The notes beneath the pieces are model-generated. The model saw nothing but the letters and a program-made list of their open reading frames with translations. It was not told the DNA's origin and ran no database searches. A stretch of DNA of 64,000 nucleotides from the NCBI GenBank assembly GCA_016180575.1, contig JACPAY010000002.1, forward strand, positions 27,235-91,234, in the 5' to 3' direction. Source of the DNA: Candidatus Omnitrophota bacterium (GTDB lineage: Bacteria; Omnitrophota; Gorgyraeia; Aquiviventales; Aquiviventaceae). Position 1 is the first letter of the stretch, and every line of letters begins with the position of its first letter. This document shows positions 9,148 to 50,815 of the stretch, in pieces. Position numbers and translations under genes: made by a program.

Positions 9148-10263
9148 ATGCCAGTCTGCGATCTAGTCTTGATCAGTTGGAATCATCTCGAGCAGACGCG
9201 GCCGTGCCTGGAGACGCTCTTCCGGTCGACCCGGACGCCGTGCCGCCTCTTCATCGTGGACAACGGCAGCACACCTGCGGTGCGCGCGTTCCTCGCCGGG
9301 GTGAAGCCGCAGGGCGAGATCCGGGAGGTCGTGCTGCTGCAGAACGACTCCAATGAGGGGTTCCCCCGCGCCGTGAACCGCGGCATCCGCGCCTCCTCGG
9401 CGCCGTTCGTCTGCCTCCTCAACAACGACCTGCGGTTCGCCGCGGGGTGGCTGGAGGAGATGCTCGAGGTGGCGCGCGCCGGCCCCTCGATCGGCGCGGT
9501 CAACCCGACCAGCAACACGTTCGGCAATGTCCCTCCGGACGGCCTGCCGCTCGACGCCTACGCCGACCGCCTCCGGGCGCGTCACGGCCGGTACACGGAA
9601 GTCGGGATGTGCATCGGGTTCTGCATCCTGACGAAGCGGGAGGTGCTGGATCGGCTGGGGGGGCTCTCCGAGGAGGTCGAGCGGATCTTCTTCGAGGACG
9701 AGGATTTCTCCATCAGGGTCCAGCAGGCCGGGTTTCGGTGCGTCGTGGCGCATGCGGCGTACGTCTTTCACGCGGAGCATCAGACGGTGAAGAAGATGCC
9801 GGAGCGCGAGGCGCTCTTCGTGAGGAACCAGCGGTGGTGCCACGCGAAGTGGGGCCGGTGGGTCCGCATGGCCTGGCCGCGCTTCACGCCGCTCACCCCG
9901 GGCTCGGAGGAGCTGCGCCGGTGGCTGGAGGAGCTGCTGGGCTGGGCCAGGCGCCGGACCCACGTCTACGTCTACTGCCCCCTGCCGCCCCGGATGACGC
10001 GGGACGCGCTGTTCGGCTCCGTCGGCCTCGTCCCGCACGCGGACATCCGGTGGCATCCGGTGGCCGCCGGCTGGGCCCGCTGGGCGGCCGCCGGGCGCAT
10101 CCTGCGGCGGCGGAAGAAGCGGTTCGATATCATCGTGGCGCCGGACGAGCGGTGGCGGCGGGCGCTTGAGCGCCTGGCGTGGGTGCACCGCGCGCAGGTG
10201 GTCCCCGCCGCGCACGCCGAGGAACTGGAGGCGCAATGGGAACGGTCCCGCTCTCGGTTGTGA
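9148..10263 (+). CDS. GT2 glycosyltransferase
   Basis: Motifs LFIVDNGST and LLNNDLRFAAGWLEEM. Length 371 aa. Confidence 0.8.
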   Translation: MPVCDLVLISWNHLEQTRPCLETLFRSTRTPCRLFIVDNGSTPAVRAFLAGVKPQGEIREVVLLQNDSNEGFPRAVNRGIRASSAPFVCLLNNDLRFAAGWLEEMLEVARAGPSIGAVNPTSNTFGNVPPDGLPLDAYADRLRARHGRYTEVGMCIGFCILTKREVLDRLGGLSEEVERIFFEDEDFSIRVQQAGFRCVVAHAAYVFHAEHQTVKKMPEREALFVRNQRWCHAKWGRWVRMAWPRFTPLTPGSEELRRWLEELLGWARRRTHVYVYCPLPPRMTRDALFGSVGLVPHADIRWHPVAAGWARWAAAGRILRRRKKRFDIIVAPDERWRRALERLAWVHRAQVVPAAHAEELEAQWERSRSRL

Positions 10264-11762
10264 TCATCGCCAGGAACGAAGCTGGGCGGCTCCGCGACTG
10301 CATCGAGAGCGCGCGGTGGGCGGGAGAGGTCCTCGTCGTGGACGACCGCAGCACCGACGACACCGCGCGCCTCGCGGAGTCGCTCGGGGCGCGCGTCCTT
10401 GCGCGCGCAATGGACATCGAGGGCCGCCATCGGAACTGGGCCCACGCGCAGGCCCGGCATGACTGGATCCTGAGCCTCGACGCGGATGAGCGGGTGACGC
10501 CGGAGCTGGCCGAGGAGATCCGCGGGCTCTTCGCCGCCGGCCCGCGGTTTGAGCTGTACGCGATCCCGCGCCGGAACTTCATCGGGGGCCGGTGGATCCG
10601 CTACGGGGGCTGGTATCCGAGCGCGCAGATCAAGCTGTTCAAGCGCACGGCGCTGCGCTGGGAGGAGACGACGGTGCACCCCCGGGCGATCTCCGACAAG
10701 CCGGGGGGGACGCTGACGCACGACCTCATCCACCTCTCCTATCGCGACCTGGCGGATTTCCTCGACAAGCTGAACCGCCAGACGACGCTGGAGGCCGAGA
10801 AGTGGCGGCTCGACGGCCGCCGGGTGACGCTGGGCAAGGCGCTGTGGCGCACGGCGGACCGCGCCCTCCGGAGCTATGTCGGGAAGCAGGGCTGGCGCGA
10901 CGGGTTCTGGGGCCTCGTGACGGCGGTCCTGGCCGGCCTGTACCAGTTTGTGGCGTGGGCGAAATACACGGAGCAGCGGCGGGCGCTGGCGGTCGAGGCG
11001 GTCGTGGCGCCGTTCGGGTCGCTGGTCGTCGACCAGGAGCGGTATGATCGCCAGCTGCTCATGTCGCACCTGTGCGCCTATCGGATCGCGGCGCACGTGG
11101 GCCGGCGGAAGCGGATGCTGGAGATCGGCTGCGGGGCGGGCTACGGGGCGTTCTACCTGGCGCATCACGCCCGGGAGGTGACGGCCATCGATGTGCAGCA
11201 GCCGAAGCTCGAGCAGGCCGCGCGGCTCTTCCGCCGCGACAACGTGCGGTTCCTGCCGGCGCAGGGGAGCCGCTTGGCCTTCCCCGACGCGAGCTTCGAG
11301 TGCGTGGGGACCTTCCAGGTCATCGAGCACATCCCGGAGCCGGAGCTTGAGACGTTCGTCCGGGAGATGGCGCGCGTCCTCACCCCCGACGGCGTCCTCG
11401 TCGTCTCGACGCTGAACCTGGACCACAACTGCAAGGACCCGGCGACCTACGTGAAGCCGTCGTTTCACGAAAAGGAGTTCAGGCCGGAGGAGCTCCGGGC
11501 GCTGCTGCAGCGCGCCTTCCCGGCCGTGGAGCTCTTCGGGCTGTACCCGGGCCGGCGCTACCGGATCTACCGGCGGCTCAAGAAATGGGGCCTGGACAAG
11601 TGGGGCCCGGCGCGGTGGAACCCGGTCCGGCGGTTCCTCCAGACGCTCGACACCGACGCGCATGAGCTCCGGCCGCAGCTGGACGCGAGCGCGGTGGACC
11701 TCATCGCGATCTGCCGGAAACAGGCGGCTCCGCTTGACGGGTTGCCGCTGCTGCGCCGGTGA
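10236..11762 (+). CDS. Bifunctional GT2 (WaaE/KdtX-like) fused to a class-I SAM methyltransferase
   Basis: The N-terminus LSVVIIARNEAGRL...VVDDRSTDDT is a GT2 domain. The C-terminus MLEIGCGAGYGAF...VIEHIPEPE is a methyltransferase fold. Start taken at the internal ATG MGTVPLSVV. Confidence 0.7.
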   Translation: MGTVPLSVVIIARNEAGRLRDCIESARWAGEVLVVDDRSTDDTARLAESLGARVLARAMDIEGRHRNWAHAQARHDWILSLDADERVTPELAEEIRGLFAAGPRFELYAIPRRNFIGGRWIRYGGWYPSAQIKLFKRTALRWEETTVHPRAISDKPGGTLTHDLIHLSYRDLADFLDKLNRQTTLEAEKWRLDGRRVTLGKALWRTADRALRSYVGKQGWRDGFWGLVTAVLAGLYQFVAWAKYTEQRRALAVEAVVAPFGSLVVDQERYDRQLLMSHLCAYRIAAHVGRRKRMLEIGCGAGYGAFYLAHHAREVTAIDVQQPKLEQAARLFRRDNVRFLPAQGSRLAFPDASFECVGTFQVIEHIPEPELETFVREMARVLTPDGVLVVSTLNLDHNCKDPATYVKPSFHEKEFRPEELRALLQRAFPAVELFGLYPGRRYRIYRRLKKWGLDKWGPARWNPVRRFLQTLDTDAHELRPQLDASAVDLIAICRKQAAPLDGLPLLRR

Positions 11763-12996
11763 GCAGCCGCCGCTGAGACAACAGGCACCAGGCGAGTGAC
11801 AGCCCGAGGAGGGGGAGGATCATCAGGACTTCGAAGACGTACGTCTCCCCCTTGATGGCCAAGACGCCGAAGAAACGCCACACCTTGGCGTGCGTCAGGG
11901 TGCTGAAGATCGCGAGCGCCGCCGCCCCGAAGAGCAGCGAAGGGCGGCGCAGCGTGGCGCGGGGCGTTGCCGCGAGCAGCGCGAGCGCCACGAAGGCGGG
12001 CCAGAGCAGGGCGCTGTACGTTGCGACCCAGCAGGTGGGGGAGCTGAGCACCATGAGCACGGCCAGCAGCGCGCCATCAAAGACGGCCCGCGCAGGTCCG
12101 GGCGTCGGGCGCGCACGGGGGAGGCACACCGCGGCGAACAGCGCTGCCGCGAGCACGGCGGTGACCGCGGCGACCGCGCCGTCGGAGAGCGCCAGCACGT
12201 TGAAGCCATAGCCGTCCGCGCGCAGCAGCCGCCCCATGAGGGCGAGGAGCGACTGGCTGCCGATTTCAAACGCGCGGTCTGGTCCGCTGGCCGCAAGCGT
12301 CTGCCACCAGGACCCGAGCAGGGTGAGCGGGCCGGCAGGCGCGAGCGCCCAGGCGGCGGCCAGATTGAGGACGAGGAACAGCAGGGCGGCCCGTCCGGCC
12401 GAGGCAAAGCGGCGGCGCACGAGGAGGTACGCGAACACGATGAGCGCCGGCAGCTTGAGCGAGACGGCCAGCGCCAGCGACAGGGCGGCGGGCCAGGGGC
12501 GCCCGCTCGTTTCGCCGAGCAGGAAGGCGAGGACGAGCAGCCCCCAGAGGATGTTGACCTGCCCGTTGAGCAGCTCGGCGGTCAGCGGACGCACGAGGAG
12601 CAGGACGGCGGCTGCCGCAGCGAGCGGATGGACGCGGATGCCATGGCGTCGGCAGAGCCGCGCGGACAGCGCGAGGGTCGCGAGCAGCAGCGCCACGCCG
12701 ACCGCGGTCCAGAGGATGGCGCCGGCGCGCGGCGTGAGCCAGCCGAGCGGCGCCCAGGCGAGCGCCCAGAGGGGCGCGTACTTGAACAGCGCGGTCGCGG
12801 AGAGCGTTGGGTCGTACAGGGCGGCCCCCCCGCCGTCCAGGACGCGCTCCGCCACCGCGCGGTAGACCTCGAAGGTCATGAGGTACGGTTGCGTGAGGGC
12901 AAAGTGGATCGGGAAGCGAATGAGGAACACCGCGCCGAGCAGGGTCAGGCAGGCGCGCTCGAGAATGCGGGGACGTTGCGCGAGCAAATTCCACAT
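11701..12996 (-). CDS. DUF2029 / GT87-like polytopic membrane glycosyltransferase (GT-C type)
   Basis: 431 aa with more than 10 predicted TM helices. Its architecture matches polyprenol-phosphate-dependent mannosyl/arabinosyl transferases. It converges on the upstream gene by about 60 nt. Confidence 0.55.
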   Translation of the reverse strand: MWNLLAQRPRILERACLTLLGAVFLIRFPIHFALTQPYLMTFEVYRAVAERVLDGGGAALYDPTLSATALFKYAPLWALAWAPLGWLTPRAGAILWTAVGVALLLATLALSARLCRRHGIRVHPLAAAAAVLLLVRPLTAELLNGQVNILWGLLVLAFLLGETSGRPWPAALSLALAVSLKLPALIVFAYLLVRRRFASAGRAALLFLVLNLAAAWALAPAGPLTLLGSWWQTLAASGPDRAFEIGSQSLLALMGRLLRADGYGFNVLALSDGAVAAVTAVLAAALFAAVCLPRARPTPGPARAVFDGALLAVLMVLSSPTCWVATYSALLWPAFVALALLAATPRATLRRPSLLFGAAALAIFSTLTHAKVWRFFGVLAIKGETYVFEVLMILPLLGLSLAWCLLSQRRLLTGAAAATRQAEPPVSGRSR

Positions 12997-13035
12997 GGCA
13001 AGCGGCGTTCATTCTAACACACTGGGGGACGCGGC

Positions 13036-15699
13036 ATGAAACCGCCCGTGTTCATCGTCGGATCGGGCGGGTCCGGCACCACCCTCCTTCGGTTGATGCT
13101 GAACGCGCACCCCCACCTCGCGATCCCGCCGGAATCGAACTTCGTCCCGGAGGTGTGGAAGGCGTTCGAGCGCGCGCAGCCCTGCAGCCCGGACACGCGC
13201 CGGGAAATTCTGCGCTTTCTGGAGGGGTTTCCCGGCTACCATGACTTCCAGCTCGACCGCGCCCGCGTCGAGGCCCGGCTGGATGCGCTCTCCCGGCCCA
13301 TGCTGTCGGACGTGCTCGACGCCATCTACCGCGAATACGCCGAGCGGCACGGCAAGTCGCGGTGGGGCGACAAGACGCCCGGCTACGTCGAGCAGCTCAG
13401 GCGGCTCAACGCGCTCTTTCCGAACTGCCTGGTCATCCACCTGATCCGCGACGGCCGGGATGCGGCGCTCTCCATGCTCGCCCGGGGCGTCGGGCCCCGC
13501 ACCCTCTACGAGGCGGCCAGGGAATGGGTGGGGCGCGTCCGGCGGGGGCGTCGCGACGGCGCGCAGGTGCTGGGGAGCGCCCGCTACCTGGAGGTCTATT
13601 ACGAGCGGCTCGTCGCCGAGCCCCGGGAAACGCTGCAGCGCGTCTGCGCGTTCGTCGGCGAGCCTATGGATGAGGTGCTGCTGGCCTTCTACCGCGACGC
13701 GAGCCGGCACATCCCTGAGGCGGAGCGGCAGAAGCACGCGGCGACGACCCGCCCGGTGACGACCGAGCGGGTGGGGCGGTGGGAGCGGGACATGCGCCTG
13801 CTGGACGTACTGATCGTGCAGGCGGTTGCAGGGTCGCTGCTCGCGGAGCACGGCTACGCGCTGAAGCGCTCGCCGCTGGCCGCGCCGGTCAGCGCCGCGG
13901 TCTGGTGCCGCCTGGCGGCCGAGCGGTTGCTGCGAACGCCCAAAAAGCTCTACAATAGCGTCGCCAAACGGCTCACCAAAAAAAGGGGTCAGACCCCTTT
14001 TGCCGAAAAGGGGTCTGACCCCTCTGAGCGCCAGGCGCTGTCGGTGGTCATCATCGCGCGCAACGAGGAGCGGCGGATCGGCCGGTGCCTTTCGAGCGTG
14101 CAGTGGGCGGATGAGATCATCGTCGTGGACGGGATGAGCGAGGACCGGACGGCCGAGATCTGCCGGCAGATGGGGGCGCGGGTCGTGTCGCACCCCTTTG
14201 AGGGGAGCTTTGCAAAGGAGCGAAATCTCGGGATGGAGCACGCCCGGGGTGAGTGGGTGCTGCAGCTTGACGCCGACGACGTGGTCACGCCGGCGTTCCG
14301 GGAGGCGGTGGCGCGGATGCTGAAAACGCCCCAGCCCCACGAGGCGTTCAAGTTCAGGCGGAAGAGTTTCCTGATGGGGCGATTCATGCGCCACGGCGGC
14401 TGGTACCATGAGCTGCCGAACCTCGTGCGGCGGACGGTCCGCTACGAAGGGCTGGTCCATGAGCGTCCGGTGATCCGAGGCACCATCGGCCGGCTGGACG
14501 CCGACGTGGAACACCATCCTTGCGACGACCTGACATCGTTCCTGGACCGGCACAACCGCTACACGACGCTCAGCGCCCAGGAGCTGGCCGGCCGGGGCGA
14601 GCGGCTGACCGAGGCCCAATGGCGCGCGCGCCTCGTCCGGAAGCCGTGGAAGACGTTCTGGAAGACCTGCGTCAAGAAACAGGGGTTCCGGGAGGGGATG
14701 CACGGCCTGGTGTTCTCGCTCTTCTTTGCCGGTGTGGAGCTCATCAAGTGGGCGAAGGTCTGGGAGCGCTCACTGCGCGCCCCCGGCATGCCGCCGGGGG
14801 ACGAGCCGATGGCCGTCCGCGCCGCGCCGCCGGGCGCCGCCCCGTCGAGGGCAGCCCACCGTGAGACGCTGTCGGTCGTCCTCATGACGAAGAACGAGGA
14901 GGCGCGCCTTTCGGCCTGCCTCGACCAGGTCGTCGGATGGGCGGATGAGATCGTCGTCATCGATGACCTGAGCACCGACCGGACCGTGGAGATCGCCCGG
15001 CGCTATACCGACAAGGTCTTCGCCTTCGCCTTGGAGGACAACCACGACCGGCAGTGGAACCGGGGGATCGAGCGCGCCACCGGCGAATGGGTCCTCCACA
15101 TCGATGCGGACGAGGTGGTGACGCCCGCGCTCCGGGAGGCGATTGACCGGCGGCTCGCGGGGGCGGAGGGCTACGGCGCATTTGAGCTGATGCGGAAAAA
15201 CTTCTTTCTGGGCCGCCCGATGCGCGACGGCGGCTGGTACCACCGGCACCTCGTCCTGTTCCGCCGCCGGCTGTCGCGGTGCGTGGGGCAGGGGATCCAC
15301 GTGCGGCTGCAGGTGGACGGCCGCATCGGGTTCCTGGATGCCGAGATCGAGCACTACCCCTTCAGCTCCCTCGCGCAGTTCGTCGAGCGGCAGAACCACT
15401 ACACCGGCGTCGAGGCCCGCGTCCTCTTGGCGGAGCGCGGCGCGCCGAGCCTGCGGGTCCTCCGCTACCAGCTGACGGTGCGGCCGGTGAAGCTGTTCTG
15501 GAAGAGCTACATCAAGCATCGGGGCCGCCGCGAGGGGGTGCACGGGCTCGTGTTCGCGCTCCTCTACGCGTTCGCCCACGTGATGCTGTGGGCCAAGGTC
15601 TGGCAGCTGAGCCTGTCGGAGGCGCCGCCCGCCTCCGCGGCGGCTGCGCAGCCGAACCAGGAGCCTGAGCTGACGCCATGGCACGCCAGTCCGACGTGA
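13036..15699 (+). CDS. Sulfotransferase domain followed by two tandem WaaE/KdtX-like GT2 domains in one stop-free frame (fusion or unseparated genes)
   Basis: The N-terminus VFIVGSGGSGTTLL is a PAPS-binding P-loop sulfotransferase. LSVVIIARNEERRIG starts at about 14040 and LSVVLMTKNEEARLS at about 14870. An AT-rich hairpin element lies in-frame at the first junction. Confidence 0.55.
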   Translation: MKPPVFIVGSGGSGTTLLRLMLNAHPHLAIPPESNFVPEVWKAFERAQPCSPDTRREILRFLEGFPGYHDFQLDRARVEARLDALSRPMLSDVLDAIYREYAERHGKSRWGDKTPGYVEQLRRLNALFPNCLVIHLIRDGRDAALSMLARGVGPRTLYEAAREWVGRVRRGRRDGAQVLGSARYLEVYYERLVAEPRETLQRVCAFVGEPMDEVLLAFYRDASRHIPEAERQKHAATTRPVTTERVGRWERDMRLLDVLIVQAVAGSLLAEHGYALKRSPLAAPVSAAVWCRLAAERLLRTPKKLYNSVAKRLTKKRGQTPFAEKGSDPSERQALSVVIIARNEERRIGRCLSSVQWADEIIVVDGMSEDRTAEICRQMGARVVSHPFEGSFAKERNLGMEHARGEWVLQLDADDVVTPAFREAVARMLKTPQPHEAFKFRRKSFLMGRFMRHGGWYHELPNLVRRTVRYEGLVHERPVIRGTIGRLDADVEHHPCDDLTSFLDRHNRYTTLSAQELAGRGERLTEAQWRARLVRKPWKTFWKTCVKKQGFREGMHGLVFSLFFAGVELIKWAKVWERSLRAPGMPPGDEPMAVRAAPPGAAPSRAAHRETLSVVLMTKNEEARLSACLDQVVGWADEIVVIDDLSTDRTVEIARRYTDKVFAFALEDNHDRQWNRGIERATGEWVLHIDADEVVTPALREAIDRRLAGAEGYGAFELMRKNFFLGRPMRDGGWYHRHLVLFRRRLSRCVGQGIHVRLQVDGRIGFLDAEIEHYPFSSLAQFVERQNHYTGVEARVLLAERGAPSLRVLRYQLTVRPVKLFWKSYIKHRGRREGVHGLVFALLYAFAHVMLWAKVWQLSLSEAPPASAAAAQPNQEPELTPWHASPT
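13978..14026. repeat. Perfect 17-bp-stem hairpin (AAAAGGGGTCAGACCCCTTTT gccg AAAAGGGGTCTGACCCC) embedded in-frame
   Basis: It has family-C-like architecture around a TCAGA/TCTGA core. The local AT-rich, Lys-rich codons are atypical for this genome. TGA occurs in both alternative frames but not in the coding frame. Confidence 0.6.
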
Positions 15700-25986: not shown

Positions 25987-26008
25987 GGTTGGCGTGTTTG
26001 CCGGTTAG

Positions 26009-26052
26009 CGTGTTTGCGCGTTAACGCACGAACGCGCCAACGCGCAAACGAA
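26009..26052. terminator. Hairpin between convergent priA and the TPR gene (GTTTGCGCGTT...AACGCGCAAAC), candidate bidirectional terminator
   Basis: An 11-bp stem lies in the 75-nt gap between the convergent stops. It is followed by the AAAGGCGCTTTTAGGCGGAAAAACCTTT hairpin. Confidence 0.4.
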
Positions 26053-27220: not shown

Positions 27221-28134
27221 TGTTTTGCGGCACGGCGGCCTTTGCGGTGCCGAGCCTGGAACGGCTCCTCGCCGCGGGGCACACGATCGCGCGGTGCATC
27301 ACGCAGCCCGACCGGCCCCGGGGCCGGGGGCTCGCCCGTGAACCCTCCCCGGTGAAAGCGGCGGCGCTGCGCCTCCGCGTGCCGCTCGCCCAGCCGGAGC
27401 GCCTTTCGGCGGCGCCGCTGGAGGGCCTGGGCGCGGATGTCGGGGTCGTGGCGGCGTACGGGCAGCTGATTCCCCGGGACGTCCTGGCCTTGAGCCCGCA
27501 TGGGATGTTGGGCGTGCATCCGTCGCTCCTGCCGAAATACCGGGGTGCCGCGCCAGTCGCCTGGGCGCTCTTACACGGCGACACGGTGACCGGGGTCACG
27601 ATTTTCCGCCTCAACGAGCGCCTGGACGCCGGGGACATCCTGCTGCAGCGGCGTATGGAGGTCGAGCCGCGCGAGGACGCCCAGGCGCTCACGAGCCGGT
27701 TGGCGGAGGCGGGGGCCGAGGCGCTGGTGGAGGCGCTGGAGGCGGTGGCGGAGGGCCGAGCGCGCGCCACGCCGCAGGATGAGGCGCAGGCCACCCTGGC
27801 GCCGAAGCTGGCCAAGGCGCAGGGCCGGATTGACTGGCGCGCGCCGGCCGAGACGATTGAGCGGCTCGTGCGCGCGACCGTGCCGTGGCCTGGCGCCTCC
27901 ACCGCGTGGCGGGGCGTCTCCTTGAGGGTGTGGCGCGCCGCAGTCGGGGCGGGCGATTCCGCCTCCGCCCCGCCGGGGACGGTCGCGGCGGCGGGGCAGG
28001 GCATCATTCGTGTGGCGGCCGGGCGAGGGTGCGTGGATCTCCTCGAGGTGCAGCCGGCGGGCCGACGCCGGATGGGTGTTGCGGAGTTCCTCGCCGGCCA
28101 TCGCATGACTGTGGGAGAGCGGTTTGAGACATGA
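27211..28134 (+). CDS. fmt: Methionyl-tRNA formyltransferase
   Basis: N-terminus MRVMFCGTAAFAVPSL, and GVHPSLLPKYRGAAP. Overlaps def by 10 nt. Confidence 0.85.
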   Translation: MRVMFCGTAAFAVPSLERLLAAGHTIARCITQPDRPRGRGLAREPSPVKAAALRLRVPLAQPERLSAAPLEGLGADVGVVAAYGQLIPRDVLALSPHGMLGVHPSLLPKYRGAAPVAWALLHGDTVTGVTIFRLNERLDAGDILLQRRMEVEPREDAQALTSRLAEAGAEALVEALEAVAEGRARATPQDEAQATLAPKLAKAQGRIDWRAPAETIERLVRATVPWPGASTAWRGVSLRVWRAAVGAGDSASAPPGTVAAAGQGIIRVAAGRGCVDLLEVQPAGRRRMGVAEFLAGHRMTVGERFET

Positions 28135-50724: not shown

Positions 50725-50815
50725 GGAGGGGTGGGCGAGTGGTCGAAGCCAGCTGACTTAAAATCAGCCAATCGTCTGGGAGGACGGTTCACGAGTTCAA
50801 ATCTCGTCCCCTCCG
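50725..50815 (+). tRNA. tRNA-Leu (anticodon TAA), class II with a long variable arm
   Basis: Acceptor GGAGGGG/CCCCTCC, U8, 3-bp D stem, anticodon stem GCTGA/TCAGC with loop CTTAAAA, 22-nt variable arm, T arm ACGAG-TTCAAAT-CTCGT. No CCA is encoded. Confidence 0.85.

Follow-up and report, generated by a model that had tools for sequence, protein, structure and literature searches.

We analysed a 64,000-nt stretch of the genome of a Candidatus Omnitrophota bacterium (assembly GCA_016180575.1, contig JACPAY010000002.1, forward-strand positions 27,235 to 91,234), referred to here as the window, and in particular its open reading frame (ORF) at 13036–15699 on the plus strand. This ORF encodes a real single polypeptide of 887 amino acids (aa), in which a sulfotransferase is followed by two family 2 glycosyltransferase (GT2) modules. 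We consider it very probable that the fused gene arose from two adjacent genes, one for a sulfotransferase of ~318 aa and one for a GT2-GT2 protein of ~531 aa, through a 49-nt palindrome that took the place of 14 nt between them. The tri-domain enzyme is ordinary in itself, and its interest lies in the mechanism of its birth and in the family of elements to which the palindrome belongs. The birth of a multidomain enzyme can be followed here at base-pair resolution, with the states before and after both kept in living relatives.

The fused gene and its unfused relatives

Six assemblies, belonging to two lineages, contain the fused ORF. Contigs from three separate sequencing runs (SRR12113384, SRR12113383 and SRR12113431) encode an identical 887-aa product, and their DNA across the junction is identical to that of the window. 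A second lineage, L006 (GCA_964561685.1), with 77% identity in the sulfotransferase part, shows the same continuity from sulfotransferase through linker to GT2 and carries an identical hairpin at the junction, and an independent ENA contig of that lineage encodes an uninterrupted tri-domain protein of 860 aa (P0239). A supposed 502-aa gene without a sulfotransferase, P0002, was rejected as an artefact of a run of 10 N in L006.

The identical junction in other assemblies and in a second lineage makes a miscalled homopolymer very unlikely. A first-pass annotation of this DNA, made from the letters alone, had left a choice between a genuine three-domain enzyme, with a linker that came from an inserted element, and a frameshift that hides a gene boundary. 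Under the second option the run of seven A (A7) at 13978–13984 would be a sequencing or assembly error, and the locus would truly hold two genes with a terminator between them. The homopolymer directly abuts a strong hairpin, and one more A would end the sulfotransferase at the TGA at 14016–14018 as ...KKKGSDPFCRKGV*. However, the window and three assemblies agree fully at the junction, as do two assemblies of a lineage with 22% divergence, the plus strand lacks a U-tract, and the ATG with which the GT2-GT2 gene formerly began no longer exists, leaving GT2-GT2 without its start in a two-gene reading. We therefore regard a miscall as extremely unlikely. The first option, a true fusion, is the one borne out, both by the concordant assemblies and by unfused relatives that show the replaced sequence.

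These relatives define the change. The closest GT2-GT2 homologues are 63–84% identical and 500–585 aa long and have no sulfotransferase. They begin MPERQRLSVV or MMAERRRLSVV, and GT2-GT2 forms a conserved two-module core in relatives P0001–P0011. In L127 (GCA_023247155.1), L128 and L129, the sulfotransferase is a gene of its own (318 aa; P0121, 85% identical) with a GT2-GT2 gene of 531/532 aa behind it, and the 8-nt overlap ATGCCTGA (L127:8950–8957) joins the stop of the former to the start of the latter. The letters in L127 read ...AAG CGG TTC CGG AAC GTC CAT GCC TGA, with the GT2-GT2 start, ATG CCT GAG CGC CAG, inside. In L162 and L163, where the sulfotransferase is 71% identical, a GT87 gene, the sulfotransferase, an extra GT2 and GT2-GT2 are all separate genes. 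Their junctions are again 8-nt overlaps, ATGCGTGA between the sulfotransferase and the extra GT2 (L162:2796–2803) and ATGGCTGA at the GT2-GT2 start (L162:3796–3803). With overlaps of this kind, any insertion or deletion of 2 mod 3 at the junction is a gene fusion. Exact 8-nt overlaps between successive cluster genes in L162 and L127 also suggest translational coupling.

Alignment with L127–L129 showed that the window has 49 nt (13975–14023) in place of 14 nt, CGGAACGTCCATGC, that held the ATG. The net gain is 35 nt, which is 2 mod 3 and thus brings the sulfotransferase frame into the GT2 frame (offset +1). The GT2-GT2 ATG is absent from the window, and the ERQ of MPERQRLSVV is kept as ...S-ERQ-ALSVV. 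A TGA at 14025–14027 on the plus strand, now out of frame (offset 2), is the former stop of the ancestral stand-alone sulfotransferase. In the order of events that we propose, the stop of the ~318-aa sulfotransferase gene would at first have overlapped the start of the ~531-aa GT2-GT2 gene as ATGCCTGA. A terminator-like double palindrome of 49 nt, brought in by some form of mobility or recombination, would then have replaced the 14 nt with their ATG, and the added 35 nt would have joined the frames while leaving the old TGA unread. The element would be translated in one of its two stop-free frames as TKKRGQTPFAEKGSDPS and serve as an interdomain linker, and, with its 3' T-tract lost on the plus strand, no termination would be expected for the fused gene. 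The element itself is possibly selfish.

The unfused state is ancestral, because the more distant sulfotransferases (P0122–P0125) all stand alone and because the ATGnCTGA start of GT2-GT2 recurs behind a different upstream gene in L162; on this alignment, the exact sequence change can be read off. A check of homologue architectures, proposed in the first-pass annotation, gave a divided answer, in that most homologues are separate genes, the ancestral state, while one other lineage shares the fusion. The reverse order, in which the fusion is ancestral and L127–L129 reached their two-gene state by losing the element, draws on the sulfotransferase part, where the window is nearer to unfused L127 (0.88) than to fused L006 (0.78), so that a simple tree places the unfused state inside the fused clade. 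Against it stand the same kind of tail in the stand-alone sulfotransferases P0122–P0125 and the recurrent overlap at the GT2-GT2 start in L162. Additionally, loss of the element would need to recreate both the ATG and the stop overlap, and a 99%-identical block around the junction, described below, points to transfer of the fused junction. We consider an ancestral fusion highly improbable and retain the replacement of 14 nt by the palindrome as the preferred account.

The ORF list and its translation confirmed the annotated stop-free frame, and Pfam bears out the annotated domains. Sulfotransfer_3 (PF13469) matches aa 4–213 with 121.3 bits against a cut-off of 27, and Glycos_transf_2 (PF00535, GT-A fold) matches two stretches, aa 336–456 and about aa 612–700, with 148.6 bits, above the gathering score. 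The sulfotransferase module (13036–13974, plus strand, aa 1–313) ends in the basic tail PKKLYNSVAKRL. Its motifs GSGGSGTT (aa 9–16) and RDGRDAALS (aa 138–146) are conserved in P0121–P0125, and we take them to be a 5'-phosphosulfate-binding-like loop and a 3'-phosphate-binding-like motif, respectively. GT2 module 1 (14041–14778, plus strand, aa 336–581) consists of a GT-A core with a DAD motif and a helical C-terminal extension. After a second linker (14779–14868, plus strand), which is Pro/Ala-rich and hypervariable with a GC content of 0.85–0.88, comes GT2 module 2 (14869–15699, plus strand, aa 612–887), in which the best Glyco_tranf_2_4 stretch covers aa 619–695 and the second Glycos_transf_2 stretch likewise lies. 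The DxD motifs of the two modules are visible in the translation as LQLDADD and LHIDADE. Over ~245 aa, modules 1 and 2 are 37% (E 4e-41) and 34% (E 7e-32) identical to the GT2 part of the GT2-methyltransferase encoded at 10179–11762, confirming that both are paralogous to it, as annotated. Among solved structures, the best relatives of the GT2 modules are GmaR and SunS, and the sulfotransferase module is related to TPST2 and to the sulfotransferase of CurM. On the 887-aa protein every NCBIfam equivalog stays below its cut-off, the best being TIGR04283 (108.8 bits against 182), and none of the models searched named WaaE/KdtX, the GT2 type given in the first-pass annotation.

Sulfotransfer_3 was found at E ≤ 0.001 in 2438 of the 8000 metagenome candidates scored, and therefore such a gene is not rare in itself. 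Fusions are also common in this family, with GT2-GT2 as the standard core and GT2-GT2-GT2 forms in P0008, P0010 and P0017. Other proteins, P0113–P0118 (one of them an NCBI-named protein from a Nitrospirota metagenome-assembled genome), likewise combine Sulfotransfer_3 and GT2 in one polypeptide. In contrast to the window protein, they have the GT2 at the N-terminus, so that the order is reversed, possess only one GT2 module, share only 36–44% identity over the sulfotransferase part and lack a palindrome at the junction. They are independent fusions.

The junction element and the history of the fused modules

The element at 13975–14023 consists of ACC, A7, an arm, a GCCG loop and a second arm, and encodes TKKRGQTPFAEKGSDPS. 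In the window the letters run ...AAA CGG CTC, then ACC AAAAAAA GGGGTCAGACCCCTTTT GCCG AAAAGGGGTCTGACCCCT, followed by CTGAGCGCCAG. Its arms (13984–14001 and 14006–14023) form the perfect inverted repeat that had been annotated, although the stem measures 18 bp instead of 17 and encloses a 4-nt loop. The RNA fold of the hairpin has an energy of −47 kcal/mol (z −5.6) on the plus strand and −51 kcal/mol (z −6.5) on the minus strand, and no other perfect long hairpin occurs in the window. As had been noted, the junction is rich in AAA and AAG codons within DNA of high GC content: GC drops to 0.50 around it, compared with 70.4% for the window, and 13942–14010 holds six of the 30 Lys codons of the ORF and four of its eight AAA codons. 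Calling the whole of 13935–14030 foreign went too far. This description fits 13975–14023, whereas the Lys-rich tail at 13935–13974 (PKKLYNSVAKRL, KLYNS..KR) is native to the sulfotransferase family, as seen from the tails of stand-alone sulfotransferases, APNKLYNSARKRFRNVHA in P0121 and APKKLYNSARTQ... and IPRKLARSLAKRL... in others. The palindrome had also been described as placing a TGA in both other frames. In fact the TGAs at 14016–14018 and 14025–14027 share one alternative frame (offset 2, i.e. −1), and the +1 frame has no stop here.

A terminator scan calls the junction on the minus strand only, as an intrinsic-terminator-like site at 13978–14025 with a 20-pair stem followed by T7; no plus-strand terminator was called at the junction. 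The A7 tract, the sole A7/T7 run in the window, is thus the A-tract of the element on the plus strand and the U-tract of the terminator-like site on the minus strand. On the plus strand the stem is followed by CUCUGAGCG (CCCCU-CUGAG), without a U-tract, and so the features of a Rho-independent terminator are incomplete in the direction of the gene and complete in the opposite one. An Rfam search of 13800–14200 at E ≤ 10 returned only sub-threshold chance matches (mir-550; CRISPR-DR31, with 20 bits against 35; Plastid-psbJ). The peptide TKKRGQTPFAEKGSDPS is rich in Gly, Pro, Ser and Asp. It follows the basic sulfotransferase tail and precedes the first beta-strand of GT2 module 1 (LSVVIIARNEE), where it is plausibly a flexible interdomain linker.

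An A-run beside a strong hairpin also recalls the dnaX-type −1 frameshift site, in which A_AAA_AAG is followed by a downstream stem-loop. In a recoding scheme for the window, A7, a rare AGG codon and the hairpin would promote −1 frameshifting or transcriptional slippage, yielding a free sulfotransferase of ~327 aa (stop TGA 14016) in addition to the fusion, as with the tau and gamma products of dnaX. The tract is the only A7 in 64 kb, a very stable structure lies immediately 3' of it, the −1 frame stops 11 codons on, inside the second arm, and both A7 and hairpin are identical in the two fused lineages. However, the zero frame is ACC AAA AAA AGG, giving a heptamer phase of C_AAA_AAA and not X_XXY_YYZ, and the stem begins at 13984/5, leaving no spacer of 5–9 nt; of heptamer phase, spacer and downstream structure, only the last is present. 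Moreover, an A-tract and a TGA are general features of the element family, intergenic copies included, the copies read in frame in NuoL and elsewhere do without recoding, and a recombination block explains the identity between lineages. Recoding is thus quite improbable, and the likeness to dnaX serves as a lead only.

Between the two fused lineages, the ratio of nonsynonymous to synonymous divergence (dN/dS) reaches 0.30 in the sulfotransferase, compared with 0.21 in GT2 module 1 and 0.17 in GT2 module 2 (ranges of 0.16–0.21 and 0.17–0.25 for the two GT2 modules), at a synonymous divergence (dS) of 0.33–0.59 across modules. The low ratio in each module indicates that all three are maintained and shows them to be under purifying selection. 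These values bear on another possibility, that the fusion is a recent lesion in which the hairpin blocks transcription or translation, GT2-GT2 is poorly made and the locus is becoming a pseudogene. The great stability of the hairpin, the narrow distribution over two known fused lineages and the youthful look of the junction block (dS 0.03) all favour a lesion, and, if the junction is young, much of the divergence of the modules predates the fusion, which weakens the argument from dN/dS. Nevertheless, 860–887 aa remain open in both fused lineages with dN/dS of 0.17–0.30 in every module over a dS of 0.33–0.59, the plus strand has no U-tract, and copies of the element are tolerated inside nuoL and pepP homologues. 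We consider a decaying locus improbable.

In the junction block itself (13902–14034), the window and the L006 lineage hardly differ. Identity is 0.99 over 13936–14025, compared with 0.78 to the left and 0.87–0.90 to the right, and dS is 0.03 in 13900–14034 against 0.33–0.59 in the flanks. The simplest reading is that a tract of ~130 nt with the fused junction moved between lineages by homologous recombination or, equivalently, that the flanks were overwritten; the block is a probable recombination tract. Selection on the block at the nucleotide level is less likely, because L127 differs by ~15% in the block upstream of the element. The second linker (14779–14868) forms a second mosaic patch, in which the window shares only ~64% identity with L006 and with L127, while these two hardly differ from each other at synonymous sites (dS 0.06).

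Several observations weigh against the origin that we propose. No target-site duplication was found at the window/L127 junction in the alignment with L127–L129, and 14 nt are replaced instead. Neither the rest of the 64 kb nor ~90 kb of related loci contains a second copy of the element, so that mobility within this lineage is conjectural. A hairpin of −47 kcal/mol within an ORF could impede translation or attract RNase III. Lastly, no more than two fused lineages are known, and the junction block of both may go back to one recent event, so that persistence of the fusion is weakly sampled.

The double-palindrome family and known palindromic elements

By its sequence, the window hairpin is shown to belong to what we call the double-palindrome family. 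In the family form, the unit AAAA-GGGGTCWGACCCC-TTTT occurs twice, and each arm is itself a palindrome, GGGGTCWGACCCC. The 19-mer AAAGGGGTCAGACCCCTTT has at least 120 matches listed in contigs from one genome per species, distributed over many phyla; hosts among the matches listed include Acidobacteriota, Planctomycetota, Actinomycetota, Lachnospiraceae, Alpha-, Beta- and Gammaproteobacteria, Rickettsiales, Myxococcota and others, and several of the genomes listed carry multiple copies. The exact 38-nt double palindrome with any 4-nt loop was found at 32 JGI metagenome loci, with variable loops and flanks. In 11 of 12 close pairs the centres are complementary (A then T, or T then A), indicating that the long hairpin, not two separate sites, is the preserved form. 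Most copies are flanked on either side by A- and T-tracts and have a gene as neighbour, such as those immediately before lpxB (L143) and serA (L158), and some give the upstream ORF its TGA.

Other copies are read in frame inside genes. These genes encode two NuoL homologues (L132, L160), an aminopeptidase P, where the copy falls within the Creatinase_N_2 span (L078), an AMP-binding enzyme of the acyl-CoA-synthetase type (L019) and an E2 acyltransferase, where it falls in the lipoyl/E3-binding linker (L149). In both cases checked against solved homologues (L078, L132) the insert is in a variable region. Because the element is self-complementary, it presents the same three frames on both strands: GVRPLF..KRGLTP and RGQTPF..KGSDP, the latter being the frame used in the window, are open, and GSDPF..KGV* is closed by a TGA.

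Taken together, these copies might represent an undescribed family of mobile ~45-nt double palindromes that act as bidirectional terminator-like hairpins at gene ends. Being free of stops in two of three frames on either strand and encoding a Gly/Pro-rich flexible peptide, such elements could lodge in essential genes, could fuse genes at overlapping stops and starts, and could have the fused junction spread by short-tract recombination, with a distribution across phyla. We offer this wider scheme tentatively and consider it doubtful as a whole.

A full-text search of the available literature with GGGGTCAGACCCC and GGGGTCTGACCCC found no paper. A 53-aa synthetic peptide of the element gave no candidates in a protein word index, for which the ~15-residue peptide itself is too short. 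The 30-aa junction peptide, compared by phmmer with 1.84 billion representatives, matched one unrelated repeat protein, the ~15-residue peptide again being too short. Among viral contigs matching AAAGGGG-N5-CCCCTTT, the centre TCWGA accounts for 9 of 129, tied with CAWTG (9) and close to CAACG/CGTTG (7). TCWGA is thus one of the three commonest centres without standing apart from the others, so that the outer frame amounts to a generic terminator-like form and the distinctive feature is the palindrome as a whole. Viral contigs seldom carry the double palindrome, which occurs at 2 loci. The terminal repeat of Tn3 (GGGGTCTGAC...) was considered as a relative and rejected, the mere 10 nt in common being a coincidence.

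Among described elements, the nearest in behaviour are the Rickettsia palindromic elements (RPE), selfish palindromes translated in frame inside genes whose host protein is still under selection (PMC10969869). RPE and the present element are alike in being short and palindromic, in their apparently selfish nature and in occurring in frame within coding sequence. However, RPE are ~100–150 bp long, belong to Rickettsia, whose genomes hold many copies, and are unrelated in sequence, while the present element is ~45–50 nt long and occurs in many phyla. Furthermore, it does not merely add a loop but removes a start codon, shifts the frame and turns two genes into one. Its in-frame occurrence fits RPE membership, and its length of 49 nt, host range and copy number (one in ~150 kb) do not. 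It works like an RPE without being a member, and extends the Rickettsia type of palindrome-in-gene observation to a much smaller element that is apparently cross-phylum and whose outcome is gene fusion.

SPRITE of Streptococcus pneumoniae, a terminator-like repeat (PMC10969869), and palindromes of the REP/BIME type resemble the present family in their A-tract, GC-rich stem and T-tract, in lying mostly at gene ends or between genes and in their capacity to be multi-copy. Their sequences are unrelated, however, and the arms of the present element are each palindromic, with the window copy intragenic and missing its plus-strand T-tract. No transposase (e.g. RAYT) linked to the element turned up, and none was searched for. 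Of the features of miniature inverted-repeat transposable elements, the whole element is an inverted repeat, but there is no target-site duplication, 14 nt being replaced, and multiple copies occur in some other genomes and not in this one.

Single cores, AAAGGGGTCWGACCCCTTT, often sit at the apex of longer hairpins, forming a constant tip on a stem that varies by locus (L018, L026, L031, L045, L079, L083, L104, L112 and L125). In Lachnospiraceae (Faecalicatena, Muricomes and others) a larger palindrome, ...CAGAATATTCTGAAAACGG..GC-core-GC..CCGTTTTCAGAATATTCTG, encloses the core at L036 (5192, 6680 and 7726), L080:682, L090:2602, L099:6640, L101:6771, L115:4174, L117:2314 and L125:2329, and this looks like a separate, larger repeat family around the same centre. 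The densest cluster seen, eight cores within 8 kb of one contig (L110:2316–6341), includes a 61-nt tandem duplication and one close A/T pair. In the metagenome-assembled genome CALJYC01, a third small palindrome, AAGGGTTAACCCTT, lies in the loop of the double palindrome (L049:1994–2053, L055:2260–2319 and L007:162–200). Repetition of this arrangement on several CALJYC01 contigs marks it as a lineage-specific variant of the element.

Gene cluster and putative product

The ORF lies in a gene cluster of the lipopolysaccharide (LPS)-core/O-antigen type. Cluster members include two Wzy_C proteins (O-antigen-ligase-like), two GT9 heptosyltransferases, a DegT aminotransferase and epimerases, together with more GT2 genes, a sugar C-methyltransferase and GT87. 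Because the PAPS-binding motifs are intact and the cluster contains Wzy_C, GT9 and DegT, a sulfated glycan is a reasonable putative product, and the fused protein may both extend and sulfate one LPS-core/O-antigen-like glycan. The rhizobial enzymes NodH, NoeE and LpsS, whose genes lie among those for glycosyltransferases, carry out PAPS-dependent sulfation of glycans that are secreted or at the surface. These enzymes stand alone, in contrast to the fused enzyme of the window, and the NCBIfam model for NoeE matches the 887-aa protein only weakly (E 6.6e-10, 38 bits), far below its cut-off of 500 bits. From gene content, we predict a sulfated, methylated LPS-like glycan in this uncultured lineage, whose closest named homologues carry the annotation Candidatus Omnitrophota.

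The GT87 gene (11701–12996, minus strand; Pfam GT87) travels with the sulfotransferase. Comparison of window positions 11701–13974 with L004:6487–9698 (GCA_023247235.1), where the GT2-GT2 gene directly follows the GT2-methyltransferase without GT87 or a sulfotransferase, showed that GT87 and sulfotransferase form an accessory two-gene module. The window, L128 and L162 have this module, placed between GT2-methyltransferase and GT2-GT2, and L004 lacks it; in L128, GT87 is upstream on the minus strand, as in the window. Only 39 nt (12997–13035) separate the divergent starts of GT87 on the minus strand and the tri-domain gene on the plus strand, and thus at least one promoter must be inside coding sequence. 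The minus-strand terminator-like hairpin at the fusion junction lies ~1 kb upstream of GT87 in the minus-strand sense.

Elsewhere in the window, the longest inverted repeat is an imperfect 54-nt palindrome at 25996–26049, 80% complementary and centred on GTTAAC. A tRNA gene at 50725–50815 on the plus strand gives the sole above-threshold Rfam match.

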